Shown: positions 2,820 to 42,641 of the stretch, piece by piece
Position numbering within the stretch: the stretch's first letter is position 1
How the letters are laid out: every line of letters starts with the position of its first letter
Source: a virus
UHGV virus genome: UHGV-0142349
Direction: 5' to 3' (one strand)
Length of the DNA: 48,552 nt
Made by a program: the position numbers and the translations under genes
Notes under the pieces: model-generated
Told to the model about the DNA's origin: nothing
What the model saw: only the letters and a program-made list of their open reading frames with translations
Databases searched by the model: none

Positions 2820-3407
2820 ATGGAGGCAATTGCATTGTTTAATCTGATTTATGCAGATCCCCCCTGGGAATACAAAGACAAGTGTAAGGATGGGAATCGT
2901 GGCGCTGGTTTTAAGTATCCAACGATGAAAGCTGAGGATATTGCTCGTATTCCTGTCTGGCAGCTTGCTAATCCTGAATCGTGTTTGTTGGCCATGTGGT
3001 GGGTTCCGACTCAGCCAGAAGAAGCGTTGCTGGTGGTGAAAGCATGGGGATTCAGGCTGATGACCATGAAGGGCTTCACATGGAACAAATGTGGTAGCCG
3101 ACAACCAGATAAGCTGGTGATGGGGATGGGGCATATGACTCGTGCAAACAGTGAAGATTGCTTGTTTGCGGTAAAAGGCAAACTGCCGACCCGCCTTGAT
3201 GCGGGGATCATTCAGTCGTTTACATCGCCTCGTCTGGAGCATTCTCGGAAGCCTGATGTGGTTCGTGACAAGCTGGTAAGGCTGTTAGGTGATGTTCCCC
3301 GTATTGAGCTGTTTGCTCGCGGTGATTTACCTGATGGCTGGCATGGCTGGGGCAACCAGTGCAATGGAGGTATCCAGTTGCATGATGCTCTCTGGCAAGT
3401 GGCATAG
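2820..3407 (+). CDS. MT-A70 family N6-adenine DNA methyltransferase
   Basis: Catalytic DPPW motif in IYADPPWEY context; size and layout typical of phage Dam-like MT-A70 enzymes. Confidence 0.75.
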   Translation: MEAIALFNLIYADPPWEYKDKCKDGNRGAGFKYPTMKAEDIARIPVWQLANPESCLLAMWWVPTQPEEALLVVKAWGFRLMTMKGFTWNKCGSRQPDKLVMGMGHMTRANSEDCLFAVKGKLPTRLDAGIIQSFTSPRLEHSRKPDVVRDKLVRLLGDVPRIELFARGDLPDGWHGWGNQCNGGIQLHDALWQVA

Positions 3408-3519
3408 AATTATATAATTATATATTTATATAAAAATTGCTTTACAGGTGGGAAAAAATTTCCTATGGTTATACCCGAAACCGAGCGATACCCGCCCTGG
3501 CTAAACCGGAGATAACCCG
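3407..3519 (+). promoter_or_regulatory. promoter-leader cassette copy A (AT-rich motif, -35 TTTACA, 17-bp spacer, -10 TATGGT, conserved 5' leader)
   Basis: Near-identical to 35479..35591 and 45065..45180; ends at ATG 3520; GGAGA Shine-Dalgarno. Confidence 0.6.
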
Positions 3520-3789
3520 ATGAAAGTACAAGACCGTGAAGTAGTAAAAAGCCTCCTGCAATACCTGACCTCAAAAAACCTGACGGGCAGCGTTGAGTTC
3601 CGTGAAGCGTTAAAACATTTCAACGTCACTACGGTTTATCGTTGGGAAAACAAACATTCTGAAAGACCGTATGTGGTGGATGTTTTTGCGCCTGATATTG
3701 AGTGCGGTTTTGAGCGCCATTCATTCAAAAAGAAACATTCCGCTGATGTTTTTTGTGAGGTTGTATGTGCGGCAGGAGATGATGAGTGA
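3520..3789 (+). CDS. hypothetical protein (cassette-driven)
   Basis: 89 aa ORF starting right after conserved leader with SD. Confidence 0.5.
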   Translation: MKVQDREVVKSLLQYLTSKNLTGSVEFREALKHFNVTTVYRWENKHSERPYVVDVFAPDIECGFERHSFKKKHSADVFCEVVCAAGDDE

Positions 3790-3986
3790 TGCGTATTTCC
3801 TTCAAACGTGCGACTGAGCAGCAACGCAAAGAGTTCCTGGCTGATGATGTTGCGGCCGTTTATGACCTCATGAAAGAGGTTGTGGAATCAGGGAACTACA
3901 CGGCGGCAAAGATGCTTAAACTGCAATTTTTGCTGGGCGACCTGAAATACAAATCCGAAGTTGTCGCCGGACGACGCGAGCATTAA
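3786..3986 (+). CDS. hypothetical protein
   Basis: 66 aa ORF, start overlaps stop of preceding gene (ATGA), followed by terminator. Confidence 0.4.
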   Translation: MMRISFKRATEQQRKEFLADDVAAVYDLMKEVVESGNYTAAKMLKLQFLLGDLKYKSEVVAGRREH

Positions 3987-27104: not shown

Positions 27105-29483
27105 GTGAGTAAATTATTATTTACGATGACTGACGCCGGGCGTCAGGAGCTGGTTAATGCCAACAAAACAGGAACAAATAAAGTTGAGATTGTTTCTGTT
27201 GGTTTAGGTAGTAGATATTATGTCACGTCAACTTCACAAACAAATATAACAAACGAAATAAAACGACTTACCACAATAGGTGGCAAAGTTGTTTCCCCTG
27301 ATACAATTCATGTAACAGCGAAGGATGATAGTAAAGATGAGTATGTTGTCCATACAATAGGATTGTATACGAATAAGGGTACGTTGTTTGCTGTATACTC
27401 ACAAGAACAAGCAATAATAAATAAAGCATCATCTACTATCGCTTTAATATCAAGTGATATAGCAATTAAAACTCTTGATACTAAAAATATTACATTTGGT
27501 GATATTGAGTTTATTAATCCTCCCGCGACCGAAACTGTTGTTGGGGTGGCAAGATTTGCTAATGAACAAGAAATTGATGCAGGTACAGATGATTCCCTTG
27601 CTGTTTCAGCAAAACGGCTTAAGCAAGCCATTGTGAAACATGAGCAATCACGTAATCATCCTGATGCAACTTTAACCTCAAAAGGTTTTGTTCAACTTAG
27701 CAGCGCCACCAATAGCACGTCTGAAACGCTTGCTGCGACGCCTAAGGCTGTTAAGGCAGCATATGACCTGGCTAATGGCAAATACACCGCACAGGACGCT
27801 ACCACAGCGCGAAAAGGGATTGTTCAGCTCAGTAGTGCCACCAACAGCACGTCTGAAACGCTAGCAGCAACACCAAAGGCTGTTAAGGCAGCGTATGATC
27901 TTGCGGCCGGAAAGGCTCCGTCCAATCACACGCATTCGTGGGAGCAGATAACAAATGTGCCTGTAGCTTCACTGACTGTAAGGGGAATAACTCAGCTCAG
28001 TAGTGCCACCAACAGCACGTCTGAAACACTGGCCGCGACATCGAAAGCTGTAAAGGTGGTAATGGATGAAACGAACAAGAAAGCGCCCCTGAACAGTCCG
28101 GCGCTGACCGGAACACCAACAACACCAACTGCGCCAAAAGGTACTAACAATACTCAGATCGCAAGCACGGCTTATGTTATGGCTGCGATCGCTGCCCTCG
28201 TGGACTCGTCGCCTGACGCGCTGAATACGCTGAACGAGCTGGCTGCGGCGTTGGGCAACGACCCGAATTTTGCGACCACCATGACTAACGCGCTTGCGGG
28301 TAAGCAACCGAAAGATGCCACCCTGACGGCGCTGGCCGGGCTTGCTACTACGGCAGACAGGTTTCCGTATTTTACGGGGAATGATGTCGCCAGCCTGGCA
28401 ACTCTGACAAAAGTCGGGCGGGATATTCTTGCGAAATCGACCGTTGCCGCCGTTATCGAATACCTCGGTTTACAGGAAACGGTAAACAAGGCTGGTAACG
28501 CCGTGCAAAAGACAGGCGATACCTTGTCCGGTGGACTTACTTTTGAAAACGACTCAATCCTTGCCTGGATTCGGAATACTGACTGGGCAAAGATTGGATT
28601 TAAAAATGATGCCGACAGCGACACTGATTCATACATGTGGTTTGAAACAGGCGACAACGGCAATGAATATTTCAAATGGAGAAGCAAACAAAGCACCACA
28701 ACAAAAGACCTGATGAATCTTAAATGGGATGCTTTGTATGTTCTTGTCAATGCCATTGTAAATGGCGAAGTCATATCAAAATCAGCAAACGGCCTACGTA
28801 TTGCTTATGGTAATTACGGATTCTTTATTCGTAATGATGGTTCAAATACATACTTCATGTTGACAAACTCCGGTGACAACATGGGGACTTATAACGGATT
28901 AAGGCCATTATGGATTAATAACGCTACTGGCGCTGTTTCGATGGGGCGTGGCCTTAATGTTTCAGGGGAGACACTTTCAGACCGTTTTGCTATTAACAGC
29001 AGTAATGGTATGTGGATTCAGATGCGCGATAACAACGCTATCTTTGGGAAAAATATAGTTAACACTGATAGCGCTCAGGCGTTGCTTCGCCAGAATCACG
29101 CCGACCGAAAGTTCATGATAGGTGGACTGGGGAACAAGCAATTTGGCATCTACATGATTAATAACTCAAGGACAGCCAATGGCACCGATGGTCAGGCGTA
29201 CATGGATAATAACGGGAACTGGCTTTGCGGCTCGCAAGTTATTCCCGGAAACTATGGCAATTTTGACTCCAGATATGTGAAAGATGTTCGACTTGGTTCA
29301 CAGCAATATTATGGAGTGAACAACTGGCAAACATGGAATTTCCAGTGCCCGTCAGGTCATGTATTGTCTGGTATTAATGTTCAGGATACAGGGTCCAACT
29401 CTGCCGATAATATAGCGGGCGTTTATTACAGACCCGTTCAAAAGTATATAAATGGCACCTGGTATAATGTAGCGAGCGTTTAA
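27105..29483 (+). CDS. tail fiber protein (constant N-terminal part plus invertible C-terminal part)
   Basis: 792 aa; three tandem copies of [19 protein letters not shown] motif; crossover repeat at 28462..28490 inside the gene. Confidence 0.8.
27688..28065 (+). repeat. three ~80-bp direct repeats inside tail fiber gene
   Basis: Repeated nucleotide blocks at about 27688-27772, 27820-27900, 27985-28065. Confidence 0.7.
28462..28490. repeat. left inverted repeat (crossover site) of invertible segment
   Basis: ACCTCGGTTTACAGGAAACGGTAAACAAG; reverse complement matches 31505..31533 with 2 mismatches. Confidence 0.75.
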
Positions 29484-32160: not shown

Positions 32161-32341
32161 CTGGAGTTAGGCCAGTAGTATGATGCTCGCAAAACGAGAT
32201 CCAATTTAGATCCTTTTACTGGTGGATTATCGTTCGATCAGTGAGAGACTTCGTGCATGACCGAAAGTGTTGTGGTAGAGTTCTCTTAAAACCACGTAAC
32301 GTGGTTATGATTGTGGGTGTCTGGTTGGAAAGCGACCAGAT

Positions 32342-33319
32342 ATGGAAACAAAAAGCCCGCAGATAAATCTGCGGGCTTCTTGCGACATCCACGGAAAACC
32401 AACAATTAACCATGGGCGCCTCGACAACTCCCATTATACGTTGGTTTTCCGTGGACGCAAGAGCGAACATATGGATAGACCAATGCCGTCTCTACGTTCA
32501 GCTTACGTTTGTAATTTGTCGCCGGAGTTCCAGCCTCCAAAGCACCATACGCACAAGCTGCCGCTGGTGTTATCTGATGCTTTACAGCGCATTAATGGTC
32601 GTGATCTTACGTGTGAGGTTGCGTTCTACGTTAATCAACCGTCAGAGCGGAAACGCCGGATAAACGAGCATCGTCGTCGGGCGATTAATGCTGTGATTGC
32701 TGCGATTTTGCACCATGTAAACATCATTTCTAAGCGGGTTCTGGCCAGTGCTGAGGCGTTGGCTGATTTTTGCGGTCTGTCTACCGTATCCGAAGCTGGG
32801 AACAAGTCTATAACGCGCTGTACAAGGGCGTTGTCGCAACTGAAAGCGTTAGGTTTTATTGATTATGAACGTCGCTGGGATCGGGTGAATAAACAGTATT
32901 GGCCAGCGAAAATAGAGATTCGTGATCAACTGCTGGAAACCGTTGGTATTACTGAACAAGCATGGAGACGTGCGGTTAGCCAGAAACTTAATTACTTCAA
33001 TGCGAAGAATAGCGAACGGCTTAAAAAAGCGATAACGGAGGCTGATTATAAGCGTATTGTTATTCAGGAGCAGATGGAGAATGTATGGCGTCAGAGGAAG
33101 ACGGCCAGAGAGATAAAGGCAAAACAGAAAGCAGCGGAGAGAGCTGCGCGTCTTGTTCGGGAAAAGGGAGAGGCCGAACTTCGTCATCAAATCACTAGAG
33201 AGGTTAGCCAGGAATTTGCTGATGGCATGTATCCTGGAGCTGACCTTGCATATTTACGATCCCTCGTTGAGCAGCGTTATAACAGGTTAAGAAAGACTTG
33301 GAAATCACTCCAACATTAA
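32342..33319 (+). CDS. repA: plasmid replication initiator RepA (IncFII RepA1-like)
   Basis: Segment SITRCTRALSQLKALGFIDYE resembles IncFII RepA1; basic C-terminus; real start may be internal ATG 32471 downstream of leader stem-loops. Confidence 0.65.
   Translation: METKSPQINLRASCDIHGKPTINHGRLDNSHYTLVFRGRKSEHMDRPMPSLRSAYVCNLSPEFQPPKHHTHKLPLVLSDALQRINGRDLTCEVAFYVNQPSERKRRINEHRRRAINAVIAAILHHVNIISKRVLASAEALADFCGLSTVSEAGNKSITRCTRALSQLKALGFIDYERRWDRVNKQYWPAKIEIRDQLLETVGITEQAWRRAVSQKLNYFNAKNSERLKKAITEADYKRIVIQEQMENVWRQRKTAREIKAKQKAAERAARLVREKGEAELRHQITREVSQEFADGMYPGADLAYLRSLVEQRYNRLRKTWKSLQH
32346..32455 (-). ncRNA. putative CopA-like antisense RNA in repA leader
   Basis: On minus strand: 15-bp-stem hairpin (32389..32454) then hairpin 32355..32376 followed by TTTTTGTTT. 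Confidence 0.35.
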
Positions 33320-37484: not shown

Positions 37485-37673
37485 ATGATGCGTAGAAAAG
37501 CGAGTTTGCTGCAAGCTATTGGGTCCATTATTTCTTTGTTTCCGGCAGTTGATCATTTTCGTCATATGGCGACACGTTCCAGTATGGAGTTGGCGCGTGA
37601 CGCTGACGCTATTCGAAAGGATTTTCAGAAAGTCTCTGGTGTTGATAAGAGAGAAAAGAGTAAGGGGCCGTAG
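37485..37673 (+). CDS. possible small protein (62 aa), low confidence
   Basis: ATG 37485 with GGTGGA upstream; ends before hairpin 37661..37676. Confidence 0.25.
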   Translation: MMRRKASLLQAIGSIISLFPAVDHFRHMATRSSMELARDADAIRKDFQKVSGVDKREKSKGP

Positions 37674-37683
37674 CCCCTTGTAG

Positions 37684-38952
37684 TTATGGTCTGCTTTTCT
37701 GTGCCAGCTTATCAGCACATGTTTTTATCAGATCCTGTAGTGTCCTGGCTGGCAGGTTTGCATCCAGAACGCTGAGTATGCTGTTGTGATCAGCCTGGTC
37801 GACTACTTTGCCTGTCGGTGGTAGTAGCTTGAGCTGAGGATTCAGGTCCTCGTCAAAGCTGATAAGTGCTCTGGCGTTCCTGAGCAGATCAAGAAGTAAG
37901 GCTGATATCACATTTTCCTGAGTCATTGCTGGCAGACTTAGCGCCGCTTTAGTTTTCTCCGTCGCCTTGTCAAACTCTTTGATTAGTGTCTTGCGGTAGT
38001 TCGGTTCCGTTAATAGCCGATTATGCTCTGTTGCCGCGCGGATAATCGTTTTTTCTTGGTACAGTCGTTTAGCCAGATCACGCTCGTACTGTGTTTTTAA
38101 CACGCTGCTGATAGCGTTAAAGGCTTCAATGTAGGCCAGCTTGATATCTTTTACGCCTGGACCGTCGATGCTCTCCATGAGCAAGGTAAATCCGTCTTTT
38201 GTCATGCGATAGATTGTTATTTCGCGGTCGCTTCCTTCCAACGGTCGTTGCTCTTTAAAGAAATGACGCGCCGCAGCTGTGCGAGGAATGCGTAACGCAT
38301 CGATGGCCATAACGATGGAATTGTTTGTGGTGCTGAATGCCTGGGCAACATCGGCCGAGGTTGTGAGTGGCTCGTTATTGCACACCTTAATGTAAAACAT
38401 CGGTTTGGCGTTGAGCGTATCGACAACCTCACGAGCATTGTTTGGCGAGACGGTTACGGTCGCGGCCGTTTGCGCGTTCTGGTTGAAGTAGCAGTCTTCC
38501 AGCCGTTCGAACACATCCCACGCTTGGTTAGTTTCAAGCATTTTGGCGTGACGTGCAGCCCCGCGTTCTGTCCAGAGAATGAGGGAGCGAACGTTACGGG
38601 CGATTTTCACAGAGTGACTTTTAGTTACCTTGTGGTTAACAGAGTAGTTTAAAACTACTCTGTGCTCGTCGCTCTCTCTTTTAGAGGGGGCGTCATTAAC
38701 TGAATCTCTTAAAGAGTTTTTGTTCTTCACATCATTATCTTGAGTCACTTTGTGCTTTAACTCTCGAAGTTCGTTACCTTCAATTTTGAAGTAGTGCTTA
38801 CCTTCAATGAAGCGTTCCTTATTCTCATGATGATTTTGTCGAATGCGTACAGGAGATACGCCGTAAAGCTGTGCCAGTAACTCGGTAGTAATGACAGGGA
38901 TTTGGTTATGCAGGATAGGCTGTAGGGTGTTAACGGTCGGAAGCGTTTTCAT
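37684..38952 (-). CDS. antirepressor (KilA-N/ORF6N-like N-domain, Ant-like)
   Basis: 422 aa; N-terminal ITTELLAQLYGVSPVRIRQNHHENKERFIEGKHYFKIEGNELRELK resembles ORF6N/KilA-N. Confidence 0.65.
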   Translation of the reverse strand: MKTLPTVNTLQPILHNQIPVITTELLAQLYGVSPVRIRQNHHENKERFIEGKHYFKIEGNELRELKHKVTQDNDVKNKNSLRDSVNDAPSKRESDEHRVVLNYSVNHKVTKSHSVKIARNVRSLILWTERGAARHAKMLETNQAWDVFERLEDCYFNQNAQTAATVTVSPNNAREVVDTLNAKPMFYIKVCNNEPLTTSADVAQAFSTTNNSIVMAIDALRIPRTAAARHFFKEQRPLEGSDREITIYRMTKDGFTLLMESIDGPGVKDIKLAYIEAFNAISSVLKTQYERDLAKRLYQEKTIIRAATEHNRLLTEPNYRKTLIKEFDKATEKTKAALSLPAMTQENVISALLLDLLRNARALISFDEDLNPQLKLLPPTGKVVDQADHNSILSVLDANLPARTLQDLIKTCADKLAQKSRP

Positions 38953-39176
38953 TTTGCACCTCCCATAACTACTTTGGTTACGAGGGAGATTTTTGCGTCA
39001 GAAACAGCGTTATCGTTGCTGGCGATGCGCATAGCTTCGCGCTCGATGATTTCAGCCAGGCGGAATTTATCGGCGTATGAGGCTTTCTTGAGAAGGATCT
39101 TTACGAGGTTGACGTAATAGTCATGGGGTAGGTTTGTCATTGTGATATCTCCAGTATATGGAACTATCACCGCCAT
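38949..39176 (-). CDS. small protein upstream of antirepressor (possible regulator)
   Basis: 75 aa overlapping ant start; start may be internal Met. Confidence 0.35.
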   Translation of the reverse strand: MAVIVPYTGDITMTNLPHDYYVNLVKILLKKASYADKFRLAEIIEREAMRIASNDNAVSDAKISLVTKVVMGGAK

Positions 39177-39435
39177 TCGAGGCTAATCAAATGGTGGTGA
39201 GCCGTACAGGGTTAGCCTTACCGGACACAATGACGAACCGGCGCGGATTTCTCCGCCCCTGTACGACCCACCATAATTTGGGCGTAACAGTGCTCTACGC
39301 ATAAAAAAACCGCTAACGCGGTATGCGCCATCGTGTTATTCAGGAGGCTAATCCCGACCGTAGATTTTGCTACGGCTCGGAAAGTGTCCACCAATGGCGC
39401 ATTCATGTCAATACGGCGGGATTTTAACAGAGACA

Positions 39436-39448
39436 ACCACATAGCGTG
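39436..39448. promoter_or_regulatory. operator-like site CCACATAGCGTGG upstream of ant operon
   Basis: Matches CCACAT-N3-GTGG motif seen in repressor/cro intergenic region. Confidence 0.45.
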
Positions 39449-39473
39449 GGTTTATTGGTAGGCAGAAACAAAA

Positions 39474-39498
39474 AAACCGCCCTATTGAGGACGGTTCT
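39474..39498 (-). terminator. minus-strand rho-independent terminator
   Basis: Hairpin accgccct/aggacggt with A7 before on + strand (T-run after on minus). Confidence 0.45.
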
Positions 39499-39893
39499 TT
39501 CGTGCTGATCGGATTCGCGGTCCTTTCAGCATTACGTTGTTGTATAAACAACCACGCAAGCACAAGCAGCAAATTGATTTTACTCAAAAGGTAATAATAG
39601 TCCACTATTATACATCAAAAAATTGTGGTTCTTGTTGTGTCAGCAAACTCACAGATTGTGGGTAGGTTACTGATTTTGTGAAAATAAACTGTTTTTTTCG
39701 TTTAATTTCTTTCCTATTACTAATCTTAAAATAATCGTAAAATACCTGTGGACCTTCCCGCCGATTCGCACCCGGGCACCGACTTTAGGGGAGGATTTCC
39801 TGTTGCCGTACATGCAAGCACAAGCAGCCGTGCTTGCTCTCGCGTTGTTTTCGTCGGTGGGGATGCCGTGAAACGGCCTGTAAGGGCCATACA

Positions 39894-40016
39894 ATGAAAA
39901 AATACTGTATGTGTATTTTTATCGTTGTTACTGGAGCTTTGTTTACGCCACATGGGGAGGGTTGGAAGATTACTGATAACGCTCTGAATGTGACGATAAA
40001 CATTAGCAGCAAGTAG
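39894..40016 (+). CDS. small hydrophobic protein (40 aa), candidate type I toxin-like peptide
   Basis: MKKYCMCIFIVVTGALFTPHGEGWKITDNALNVTINISSK; followed by terminator at 40022..40045. Confidence 0.3.
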   Translation: MKKYCMCIFIVVTGALFTPHGEGWKITDNALNVTINISSK

Positions 40017-40021
40017 CGATT

Positions 40022-40045
40022 AGGCCCCTTCGGGGGCCTTTTTTA
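40022..40045 (+). terminator. rho-independent terminator
   Basis: ggcccc-ttcg-ggggcc then TTTTTT. Confidence 0.65.
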
Positions 40046-41773: not shown

Positions 41774-41792
41774 CCACAAAATGTGGTTTTTT
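41774..41792. promoter_or_regulatory. palindrome AAACCACAAAATGTGGTTT (operator-like and/or bidirectional terminator)
   Basis: Perfect inverted repeat flanked by A/T runs; shares CCACA..TGTGG core with sites at 42524-42641 and 39436. Confidence 0.45.
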
Positions 41793-41829: not shown

Positions 41830-42486
41830 TCATAACCAGTTGACAACACTAACTACGCGGCCAAGAACTTTATAACGCTTAAATTCCTCGTTATTCAGAT
41901 GCTTAGTGTTCATTTCAGCATCCCTTTCGGTTGACAGCATAACAGCATTGTCACCCGGTATGACTCTACAGTGCCTCAAAACAACCAGGCCATTTCTGTC
42001 TTCAAGGGCATAGATCCCCTCATGAATCTCTGTATCGTCTGTATCAATCAGGACTTGGGAGCCAGGGGATATTGTTGGTGACATTAACTCATCGTTGCTC
42101 TGGAGAACTGACAGAGACGATGGGTTGATGTTCTTGCTTCGTAGAATCTCCTGTTCTATCGCCAGCACTGGCTTTTCTCCGGCGTGCGATGCTATGTCAT
42201 TTTTTATAGCTACAAGCCCAGGAATAACAGGAGCGTTAGTATTCTGGGGTGGGAACGGGTTATCTGTTAAGCACGCGATATAAGGCGCTGATGCTTTCAG
42301 GGCGTGCGCGATTTTCTTGATGGCAGGTATAGATGGTTGTCTTAATCCGGCCTCATAGTTCTGCAAGGTGCTTAAGCCTATTCCAGTGACTTGCTGGAGA
42401 TCTCCGGCAGTCATGCCGGATTGTTTCCGTAGAGTCTGAATGCGCAGACCTATTTCTTTCTTGATGTTCTCGTCGTTGCTTTTCAT
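41830..42486 (-). CDS. CI-like repressor (N-terminal HTH, C-terminal S24/LexA-like peptidase domain)
   Basis: HTH in the N-terminal part and an S24-like C-terminal domain; divergent from Cro-like gene. Confidence 0.75.
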   Translation of the reverse strand: MKSNDENIKKEIGLRIQTLRKQSGMTAGDLQQVTGIGLSTLQNYEAGLRQPSIPAIKKIAHALKASAPYIACLTDNPFPPQNTNAPVIPGLVAIKNDIASHAGEKPVLAIEQEILRSKNINPSSLSVLQSNDELMSPTISPGSQVLIDTDDTEIHEGIYALEDRNGLVVLRHCRVIPGDNAVMLSTERDAEMNTKHLNNEEFKRYKVLGRVVSVVNWL

Positions 42487-42523: not shown

Positions 42524-42641
42524 ACCACATTTAGTGGTTTTCACATGGTAAGACGAGAGGTGGACCACAAATAGAAGGTTATTTTTTGTTTCGCCCATTG
42601 AAAAACTCACGATATGTGGTTTTAATACCACATATCGTGGT
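42524..42641. promoter_or_regulatory. operator region with inverted-repeat sites (CCACAT-N3-GTGG type)
   Basis: ACCACATTTAGTGGT (42524-42538); CACGATATGTGG (42608-42619) and CCACATATCGTGG (42628-42640) form a larger palindrome. Confidence 0.55.

Follow-up and report, generated by a model that had tools for sequence, protein, structure and literature searches.

A putative IsrK/C4-type antisense RNA module and a separate TimR-like RNA unit upstream of the antirepressor gene of a phage-plasmid

The antirepressor operon and its setting

The stretch of DNA analysed here, called the window throughout, is the whole of UHGV virus genome UHGV-0142349 (48,552 nt), and the subject is its minus-strand operon for the antirepressor gene ant together with the RNA leader that precedes it, read from 39620 to 37650. 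The window belongs to a family of non-mobilizable Escherichia plasmids of ~47-50 kb that carry phage genes, and the closest named phages are the Yersinia phages vB_YpM_39/41/44 and E. coli vB_EcoM-613R2. The element is a phage-plasmid, as it belongs to a phage-bearing plasmid family and encodes a ParA-type gene along with a CI-like helix-turn-helix (HTH)/S24 repressor (41830..42486). An original prediction for this locus described a small open reading frame (ORF) and ant lying downstream of two terminator-like hairpins and an operator-like site, such that transcription into ant would need read-through, antitermination or processing. Both hairpin and T-run structures (about 39304-39323, hereafter hairpin 1, and 39474-39498, hereafter hairpin 2) are present, as seen by sequence reading and folding and, for hairpin 1, by a terminator scan. 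RNA family models and comparison with relatives indicate that the two belong to different transcripts, with the ant leader being an ordinary member of the IsrK/C4 antisense-RNA immunity module known from P1, N15 and Gifsy-1, and hairpin 2 probably terminating a separate small RNA (sRNA).

The coding part of the operon comprises the following features:

37662..37679, minus strand: terminator-like hairpin just past the ant stop, -13.8 kcal/mol, with a U-rich tail (folding)
37684..38952, minus strand: ant, 422-amino acid (aa) antirepressor with ORF6N and Phage_pRha domains (Pfam and several anti-repressor PHROG matches)
38949..39140, minus strand: 63-codon ORF, occupying the place that icd has in P1 and orf45 in Gifsy-1 (PHROG 7886, PGAP)
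39143..39170, minus strand: predicted hairpin closing off the Shine-Dalgarno sequence UGGAG (39153-39149) of the 63-codon ORF (structure prediction)

The identification of ant as an antirepressor gene is borne out by its Pfam and PHROG matches. The small ORF upstream also exists, though not with the start at 39176 originally given to it. That start has no Shine-Dalgarno sequence and both the PHROG and PGAP models begin at 39140, where a GGAG Shine-Dalgarno sequence lies upstream of the likely ATG. The resulting 63-codon ORF matches PHROG 7886 over residues 1-63 of 63 (E = 2e-47), a 63-aa protein is annotated by PGAP in a related plasmid, and the stop codon overlaps the start of ant in an ATGA (38952-38949). 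The stem that would sequester its Shine-Dalgarno sequence is kept in relatives through apparently compensatory changes, as judged by eye from the alignment. C-rich, G-poor stretches occur at 39168-39065 and 38960-38870 (C/G up to 2.7-2.8), and the one at the 5′ end of the 63-codon ORF resembles, in composition, a candidate Rho loading site.

In the window ant is intact and encodes a single 422-aa fusion with a full-length match to PHROG 8244. The annotation of the antirepressor in pTD225C4_47 (L002 3852-5120) consists of an ORF6N pseudogene and a separate Rha-family gene.

RNA families and pairing elements in the leader

Upstream of the 63-codon ORF the leader contains the following elements, named after the a1/b1/c4/a2/b2 nomenclature of the annotated P1 record:

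39303..39376, minus strand: IsrK-type leader RNA, made up of a first hairpin, a second hairpin with a1 in its loop, the b1 linker and an intrinsic terminator (Rfam RF01394)
39345..39351, minus strand: a1, UUAGCCU, in the loop of the second IsrK hairpin, candidate target/decoy for a′ (exact complement of a′)
39326..39336, minus strand: b1, ACACGAUGGCG, candidate upstream target/decoy for the b′ loop (11 contiguous pairs with b′, including G-U)
39303..39322, minus strand: hairpin 1, read as the IsrK intrinsic terminator, ACCGC-GUUA-GCGGU followed by U7 (terminator scan, folding)
39190..39278, minus strand: C4-type antisense RNA (Rfam RF01695)
39225..39239, minus strand: b′, GGUUCGUCAUUGUGU, in the loop of the second C4 hairpin (complementary to b1 and b2)
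39212..39218, minus strand: a′, AGGCUAA, in the single-stranded linker of C4 (complementary to a1 and a2)
39180..39186, minus strand: a2, UUAGCCU, a few nt past the C4 3′ end (exact complement of a′)
39131..39144, minus strand: b2, CACAAUGACAAACC, over the AUG (39140-39138) of the 63-codon ORF (13 of 14 Watson-Crick pairs with b′)

Both RNA families were recovered above their gathering scores and over the full length of their models, IsrK (RF01394) with 65.7 bits against a gathering score of 50 (model positions 1-77 of 77) and C4 (RF01695) with 70.8 bits against 45 (positions 1-87 of 87). Across 95 aligned family sequences, 98.9-100% of cells in the IsrK helices are paired, with many double-sided changes, and the C4 closing stem is 99.3% paired, with 12 of its 16 pairs changed on both sides. 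C4 folds at -50.5 kcal/mol (z = -5.5), with a closing stem of 16-17 bp around two hairpins, and the whole 491-nt leader folds much more stably than its shuffles (z = -7.6). The predicted mature C4 extends from ~39272 to 39192 and ends in a tRNA-like manner, a G39272:C39196 closing pair (G1:C72-like) being followed by A39195 and then CCA at 39194-39192. Such a tRNA-like end was reportedly described by Hartmann et al. in 1995 as making P1 C4 a substrate of RNase P, and we infer that RNase P may likewise cut the 5′ end of C4 from the leader here, giving a stable RNA of ~80 nt.

A 39-codon ORF (39183-39302, minus strand) begins right past the IsrK U-run, spans C4 and ends 7 nt before the ATG at 39176. 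Its position is that of Gifsy-1 orf45, but it does not overlap the antirepressor start, and it is probably not meaningful here because it has no Shine-Dalgarno sequence.

The hairpin nearer to ant is the terminator of the IsrK match. It has a 5-bp G+C stem (39322-39318/39313-39309), a GUUA loop and a run of seven U residues (39309-39303), and its core is worth -8.0 kcal/mol, which makes it a weak and presumably leaky terminator. Taken alone it is unexceptional, as the 38-nt segment around it reaches only z = -1.5 in folding against shuffles, and on that basis both hairpins could be regarded as incidental and without regulatory role. That view is scarcely credible in the face of curated covariance-model matches above gathering scores, of a far more stable hairpin 2 (z = -7.1) whose stem is kept by paired substitutions, and of the conservation of hairpin 1 itself. 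In 97 of 98 family members a run of at least five U residues is found between a1 and a′, and the hairpin before it has a median of -7.9 kcal/mol. N15 has an annotated hairpin at the equivalent position, and one can be seen in P1 as well. In some members of the family (e.g. L038, L048, L060 and L087) C4 is set off from the IsrK terminator by 40-45 additional nt, at columns ~124-165 of the family alignment; the window is without this insert.

The C4 segments a′ and b′ each have a complement on either side of the RNA. The region of a2 repeats that of a1 exactly over 10 nt (GAUUAGCCUC). Duplexes of the exposed C4 segment are predicted at -36.7 kcal/mol with IsrK and -32.2 kcal/mol with the translation start region, and one in 500 shuffles reaches either energy.

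Alleles and covariation among relatives

These complementarities were followed first in the close family, comprising 13 IMG/VR contigs that encode the 63-aa protein, a Yersinia phage and one plasmid. The order IsrK, C4 and 63-aa ORF recurs in the Yersinia phage, the plasmid and 11 of the 13 contigs, while two of the 13 have an sRNA-Xcc1-type match in the position of C4 and no IsrK match. Among near-identical leaders, three a alleles (AGGCUAA, ACGCCAA and GUUCCAA) switch jointly in a1, a′ and a2. For b′ there are five alleles, with corresponding changes in b1, and for four of the five the AUG region (b2) changes correspondingly too.

A wider family was gathered with a degenerate IsrK DNA pattern, which yielded 116 unique viral-contig segments, representing 30 alleles of a1. 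In 101 of the 116 segments an exact reverse complement of a1 (that is, a′) occurs 100-170 nt downstream, against 2.6% in the control with other alleles, and a second exact copy of a1 (a2) follows 20-39 nt past a′ in 98 of 116. Pairing of b′ with b1 from the same locus reaches at least 8 bp in 72 of 98 sequences, against 13% for cross-locus controls. In most family members b2 lies 20-29 nt past a2, overlapping the Shine-Dalgarno sequence in the allele examples that were printed.

The a′ and b′ segments reassort independently among near-identical leaders (window 39616-39116 aligned with L001-L016), and the b′ of the window is found with two different a′ alleles. This independent reassortment suggests combinatorial RNA immunity types, and immunity specificity in this phage-plasmid family is likely, from the patterns of complementarity, to be set by short multi-allelic RNA segments. 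The plasmid pE100117_50 contains two tandem IsrK-C4-orf63-ant modules (L003 3089-3519 and 5078-5505), which have the same b′ loop and different a′ alleles; the first of its two copies of ant carries a split-pseudogene annotation.

Hairpin 2 and the ryfA unit

The second hairpin of the original prediction lies beyond the ant leader, within a unit that comprises the following features:

39470..39570, minus strand: TimR-like antitoxin sRNA, with hairpin 2 as its putative terminator (covarying pairing, conserved promoter, ryfA linkage)
39748..40044, plus strand: ryfA/timP-type type I toxin mRNA with a 41-codon ORF at 39891..40016 (Rfam RF00126)

Hairpin 2 (39498-39474) has a G+C core (39494-39488/39483-39477) followed by seven U residues, and an upstream A-tract extends its stem to 16 bp. 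It is worth -21.3 kcal/mol, and none of 200 shuffles is as stable. It escaped a simple terminator scan, probably because its T-run is taken up into the stem. In relatives the stem is retained through paired substitutions. The promoter of the TimR-like RNA (TGGACT-16-TAAAAT, 39604-39577) is conserved and implies a start at ~39570, and the first 18 nt of the RNA (39570-39553) pair over 18 bp with positions 64-81 of ryfA (39811-39828). This pairing, 18-21 nt long, covaries in three alleles among relatives. The ryfA match (RF00126) scores 143.5 bits against a gathering score of 80, its ORF starts at +144, and it has a terminator of its own at 40022-40039. The cassette is located between the partition genes and the ant operon, and is likely a plasmid-stability or cargo module.

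The ryfA RNA is known as the mRNA of the toxin TimP, and TimR is its divergent repressor sRNA (PMC7667032). The 5′ end of TimR pairs over 18 nt with the timP 5′ untranslated region, at a site that precedes the ribosome-binding site by more than 60 nt, and an intrinsic terminator comes after this end; the Salmonella timP ORF spans +145 to +261 (PMC7667032). The unit in the window shares the ryfA match, the small ORF at ~+144 and the divergent sRNA with an 18-nt pairing to the 5′ untranslated region and an intrinsic terminator, but it resides on a phage-plasmid rather than at a chromosomal locus and its ORF has 41 codons instead of 38. By analogy, the TimR-like sRNA is predicted to relieve the toxicity of the ryfA peptide. 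The RNA is identified as TimR-like from the ryfA model together with the covarying pairing. In a blastn search of the TimR-like region against E. coli genomes nearly all matches were to phage-plasmids and one of 73 was chromosomal, so that homology to chromosomal timR is not demonstrable by sequence, and RNAduplex of the full TimR-like RNA with the full ryfA RNA gave a result no better than shuffles. An RNAI-like match over the TimR-like RNA (E = 0.077) was treated as chance.

The original prediction had placed hairpin 2 in the ant leader, and a model follows from it in which both hairpins are tandem attenuators within one long leader, with dedicated antitermination or processing across the two. 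Each of the two has the convincing shape of an intrinsic terminator, they share a strand and both precede ant, and transcription might continue past the TimR-like unit into the ant leader. The model is nevertheless very unlikely. The promoter conserved in the family and the 5′ end of IsrK are found on the downstream side of hairpin 2, which itself goes with ryfA and with the covarying antisense segment, and IsrK/C4 families outside this phage group have no second hairpin. The arrangement in relatives also separates the two units. In at least five of them (vB_YpM_41, pE100117_50 and three IMG/VR contigs) the terminator of the TimR-like RNA is separated from the block of palindrome, promoter and IsrK by an inserted convergent HTH gene (~180-190 aa); the TimR-like RNA and hairpin 2 stay beside ryfA, and operator, promoter, IsrK and C4 are intact and unchanged on the other side. 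The HTH gene lies at 3406-3978 in vB_YpM_41 (L001) and at 2338-2877 in pE100117_50 (L003), equivalent to ~39465 in the window, which has no such gene. Because of its linkage to ryfA, and because the HTH gene splits it from the ant leader in relatives, hairpin 2 is best read as the terminator of the TimR-like sRNA and not as an attenuator of ant. It is possibly a bidirectional terminator.

Promoter and operator-like palindrome

The leader is preceded by two further elements:

39383..39411, minus strand: inferred sigma-70 promoter of the IsrK/C4/ant transcript (sequence reading and family consensus)
39437..39449, no strand assigned: operator-like palindrome CCAC-N5-GTGG, CCACGCTATGTGG (motif over-representation, positional conservation)

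The candidate promoter consists of a -35 element TTGACA (39411-39406), a 17-nt spacer and a -10 element GACACT (39388-39383) that ends 6 nt before the IsrK 5′ end, with a predicted transcription start near G39376. Its position agrees with the family consensus, in which 105 distinct upstream regions show TTGAC at -36 to -32 and TATAnT at -12 to -7 from the IsrK 5′ end, and with N15, in which TTGACG-17-TAGAGT occupies the equivalent place. The promoter implied by the 5′ end of IsrK is thus located downstream of hairpin 2. A promoter scan found no promoter-like site on the minus strand between 39376 and 39176. A further sequence adjoining the palindrome, TTGTCT-17-TATTGA, was set aside as an upstream promoter; it has no T at -7, is altered in L004 and L009 and is speculation only.

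An operator-like site was part of the original prediction and is present as the palindrome at 39449-39437. The CCAC-N5-GTGG motif occurs six times in the window where 0.5 occurrences are expected, and sites of the ACCAC-N5-GTGGT type found by motif search lie at 42525-42537, 42608-42621, 42628-42640, 41774-41786, 39437-39449, 32292-32304 and 27271-27283. Three related sites, two of them exact matches to the motif, fall in the cI/cro-like intergenic region, where the copy at 42608 differs from the ant-leader palindrome by one mismatch; of the further copies, one lies downstream of cI and one is intergenic before the ORF 32342..33319. A weaker copy is found at 39648-39662, between the ryfA and TimR-like promoters. 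The sites probably constitute the regulon of the CI-like repressor, which from this distribution would also bind the ant-leader palindrome. The position of the palindrome is kept in phage-plasmid relatives, and the palindrome is absent from unrelated IsrK/C4 carriers. With its centre at about -67 relative to the inferred start of IsrK, it leaves the -35 and -10 elements free. It might repress a weak upstream promoter, or act through activation or looping.

Elsewhere in the window, a tRNA-Met gene (CAT anticodon) is encoded at 2425-2500 on the plus strand. Positions 1-108 share 99% identity with the upf89.5 region of phage P7, a short patch common to P1/P7-type phage-plasmids.

Proposed control of ant and its alternatives

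The family assignments, the complementarities with their covariation, the order of the elements and the independence of hairpin 2 are established by this analysis. The explanation that fits them best, with a probability of roughly 0.78, is that of two independent minus-strand RNA-controlled units, the IsrK/C4-ant operon and the TimR-like sRNA. Transcription of the ant operon would start near 39376 from the promoter at 39411-39383. The weak terminator of hairpin 1 would stop some transcripts, releasing a ~74-nt IsrK-like RNA with a1 and b1, and the remaining transcripts would read through it and carry C4, the 63-codon ORF and ant. From this read-through RNA C4 would be excised (by RNase P at its 5′ end, by analogy with P1) and accumulate as a stable, tRNA-like RNA of ~80 nt, whose a′ and b′ segments would pair with a2 and b2 and so block initiation at the 63-codon ORF, with the Shine-Dalgarno hairpin as an additional restraint on its translation. 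If the 63-codon ORF goes untranslated, ant would not be made, because of the ATGA coupling and of probable Rho termination in the C-rich untranslated stretch. Through such pairing C4 would repress the antirepressor in trans and determine heteroimmunity, with the a′ and b′ alleles setting immunity specificity. The a1/b1 copy in IsrK may compete for C4 as a decoy or anti-antisense, comparable to the trans-activating IsrK of Gifsy-1, and is possibly also a site at which C4 adjusts termination. In the second unit, the TimR-like sRNA would repress the divergent ryfA/timP mRNA, and the strong hairpin 2 would insulate the TimR unit from the ant promoter. Within this scheme we infer the processing of C4, the block on translation, polarity through Rho, the action of a1/b1 as a decoy and the binding of CI to the palindrome.

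Several observations weigh against this explanation or limit the figures behind it. The c4-a1b1 model (RF03163) falls below its gathering score (35.7 versus 46.7 bits), the overlapping IsrK model winning, although the a1/b1 complementarity that the motif represents is nevertheless present in the window. Minimum-free-energy folding predicts no cis pairing of a1b1 with a′b′. The close relative L016 has no b′/AUG pairing, and in the window b2 lies over the AUG, unlike in most family members, where it is nearer to a2 and, in the inspected examples, at the Shine-Dalgarno sequence. The pairing figures of 100% and 99% for the a1-a′ and a′-a2 helices in the 95-sequence alignment are inflated, as the sequences had been pre-selected for exact a′ and a2, and the unbiased figures for the a elements are the counts of 101 and 98 of 116 segments. 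The b helices are only 51-56% paired by column counting, which is low because loop indels align poorly, and they were assessed instead by the longest pairing at each locus. The -10 element GACACT is poor, agreeing with the consensus at three of six positions, and was hence missed by a simple promoter scan. The palindrome lies upstream of the -35 element, so that simple occlusion of the IsrK promoter by the repressor is unlikely. Finally, the start sites, the processing and the termination efficiency given for the window element are deduced from its sequence.

A first alternative is attenuation of the N15/P4 style, in which C4 would bind the nascent a1/b1 segments, raise termination at hairpin 1 and thereby limit its own synthesis, with ant under mostly transcriptional control. 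The b1 element ends 3 nt before the terminator stem, and in the window allele an alternative hairpin, formed by the 3′ half of b1 with the loop and 3′ arm of the terminator, is about as stable as the terminator (-8.4 versus -8.0 kcal/mol), so that an interaction of C4 with b1 could shift the balance towards the terminator. Both the near-universal conservation of that terminator (97 of 98 members) and the same IsrK and C4 layout in N15 are in keeping with this, and Ravin et al. reportedly described in 1999 a premature termination caused by the N15 CA RNA. RNAfold favours the alternative hairpin in the window allele only, however, the other printed alleles returning the terminator, and the strict covariation of a2 and b2 at the translation start would be left unexplained. 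For P1, translational repression with Rho-dependent polarity was reportedly established as the mechanism by Biere, Citron and Schuster in 1992. At the Gifsy-1 locus the same possibility has been raised by the authors for STnc1160, but growth arrest mediated by IsrK was not prevented by constitutive STnc1160 (PMC4825925). Control of ant chiefly through attenuation is doubtful, and attenuation and a translational block are not mutually exclusive.

A second alternative is positive control in the style of Gifsy-1, in which the read-through mRNA would be untranslatable through its own fold. The full-length IsrK match, the placement of the Shine-Dalgarno sequence of the 63-codon ORF in a conserved hairpin and the strong complementarity of IsrK to the a′/b′ segment of C4 all favour such an arrangement, and the mechanism has been shown experimentally at the homologous Gifsy-1 locus (PMC4825925). 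In Gifsy-1, however, the regulated ORF overlaps the C4-like RNA and adjoins anrP, whereas in the window the 63-codon ORF is distinct from C4, follows it and has a ribosome-binding site to itself, and the published Gifsy-1 structures A and B are therefore not directly transferable. Activation by IsrK is also equally explained by titration of C4. Positive control of this kind is best held as a tentative addition, being compatible with, rather than opposed to, the two-unit explanation given above.

Of the ways in which transcription had originally been proposed to reach ant, the need to read through a terminator-like hairpin is borne out and RNA processing is very probable, while nothing points to a protein antiterminator. 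A more elaborate version of the two-unit explanation, which we consider improbable, is that IsrK/C4 is wired more tightly here than in P1, through a CI-stimulated silencing RNA, b1 as an anti-terminator and combinatorial immunity types. The CI-type palindrome (at ~-67, or at ~-42 from the weak TTGTCT-17-TATTGA sequence) could let the prophage repressor stimulate the RNA that silences the antirepressor, and b1 could double as an anti-terminator element that provides C4 feedback on termination at hairpin 1. If this were so, the prophage repressor would promote the RNA that silences its own antirepressor.

The results provide a correct annotation for a family of ~48-kb E. coli/Yersinia phage-plasmids in which records label this stretch as hypothetical proteins only, with no RNA genes, and they identify the RNAs that are the probable silencers of the antirepressor while the prophage resides as a plasmid. 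Specificity set by short multi-allelic RNA would bear on superinfection and on the co-residence of related phage-plasmids, some of which, in other lineages, carry resistance genes. The current understanding of immI-type control is unchanged by these results.

Comparison with known IsrK/C4 systems

An 'IsrK-C4 immunity system' was described by Barquist et al. 2013 and related to the seqA/CI of P4 and to P1, P7 and N15 (PMC3632133). The immI-type control that had been suggested for the window is upheld by the IsrK/C4 Rfam matches and by the order of elements shared with P1 immI. In the P1 record this order is Oc4 (Op51), two promoters, a1, b1, c4, a2, b2, icd and an ATGA-overlapping ant1, and an Rfam scan of P1 returns c4-a1b1 and C4 together with an IsrK match of 35 bits, below threshold, whose span takes in the hairpin and U-run that separate b1 from c4. 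Similar to the window, the immI regions of P1 and P7 thus present an operator, promoter(s), a1, b1, a hairpin with U-run, c4, a2, b2 at the ribosome-binding site, a small ORF and an ATGA overlap with ant; their C4 is a member of the same family with a tRNA-like closing stem and a 3′ ACCA, and P1 and P7 differ in specificity alleles with compensatory target changes, as do members of the window family. The IsrK score is 35 bits in the P1 leader and 65.7 in the window, Oc4 abuts promoter P2c4 in P1 whereas the palindrome of the window lies upstream of the -35 element, the repressor is C1 in P1 and a CI-type HTH/S24 protein in the window, and b2 lies ~10 nt upstream of the icd start in P1 but over the AUG in the window. 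The window proteins are not homologous to Icd or Ant1/2: BLASTP of the 63-codon ORF against P1 Icd gave no alignment at E <= 100, the ORF has no Pfam family, and the best match of ant to P1 Ant1 has E = 0.22.

The phage-plasmid N15 resembles the window in its immA region, which contains a promoter, an IsrK-like RNA ending in a stem-loop, C4 and the ORFs of an antirepressor operon. Its IsrK match scores 62.4 bits and its C4 match 78.8 bits, and the stem-loop annotated there as putatively rho-independent is the IsrK terminator. According to the title of Ravin et al. 1999, as cited in PMC4488713 and PMC3632133, the negative regulator of N15 is a small RNA processed from the leader. Unlike the window, N15 has three ORFs including an icd-like gene, its gp30 and the window ant are unrelated (a comparison of the two found no similarity), and its C4 overlaps the start of annotated gene 32, whereas in the window C4 precedes a separate 63-codon ORF.

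At the Gifsy-1 locus, a 77-nt IsrK arises by partial termination, with read-through shown experimentally, a processed STnc1160 of ~80 nt that is complementary to IsrK is located downstream, and the upstream ORF is translationally coupled to the antirepressor-like anrP through AUGA (PMC4825925). A terminated IsrK, a read-through mRNA, a downstream C4-like RNA and an ORF coupled to an antirepressor gene are likewise predicted for the window. In Gifsy-1 orf45 overlaps the C4-like RNA and abuts anrP, whereas in the window the ORF over C4 (39302..39183, 39 codons) ends before the separate, ant-coupled 63-codon ORF. The output also differs, being AntQ-mediated toxicity in Gifsy-1, and Gifsy-1 is a lambdoid prophage while the window is a phage-plasmid. 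The P4 arrangement of seqA, CI RNA and seqC is similar in that seqA/CI are structural homologues of IsrK/C4 and complementary sites lie on both sides of the processed RNA (PMC3632133, PMC4825925). Unlike in the window, P4 controls replication genes and CI is its primary immunity factor; the likeness to P4 is drawn from these published descriptions.

The layout had originally been thought to lack a described match, which is not the case. Because the order of the P1 record, the IsrK and C4 of N15 immA and the isrK-orf45/STnc1160-anrP region of Gifsy-1, with its processed RNA, match the layout of the window, a described case exists and the RNA module is one of known families. As the RNA module falls in known families while the proteins that it would control are unrelated to those of P1 and N15, the IsrK/C4 module is evidently portable between antirepressor types, as judged from these comparisons.

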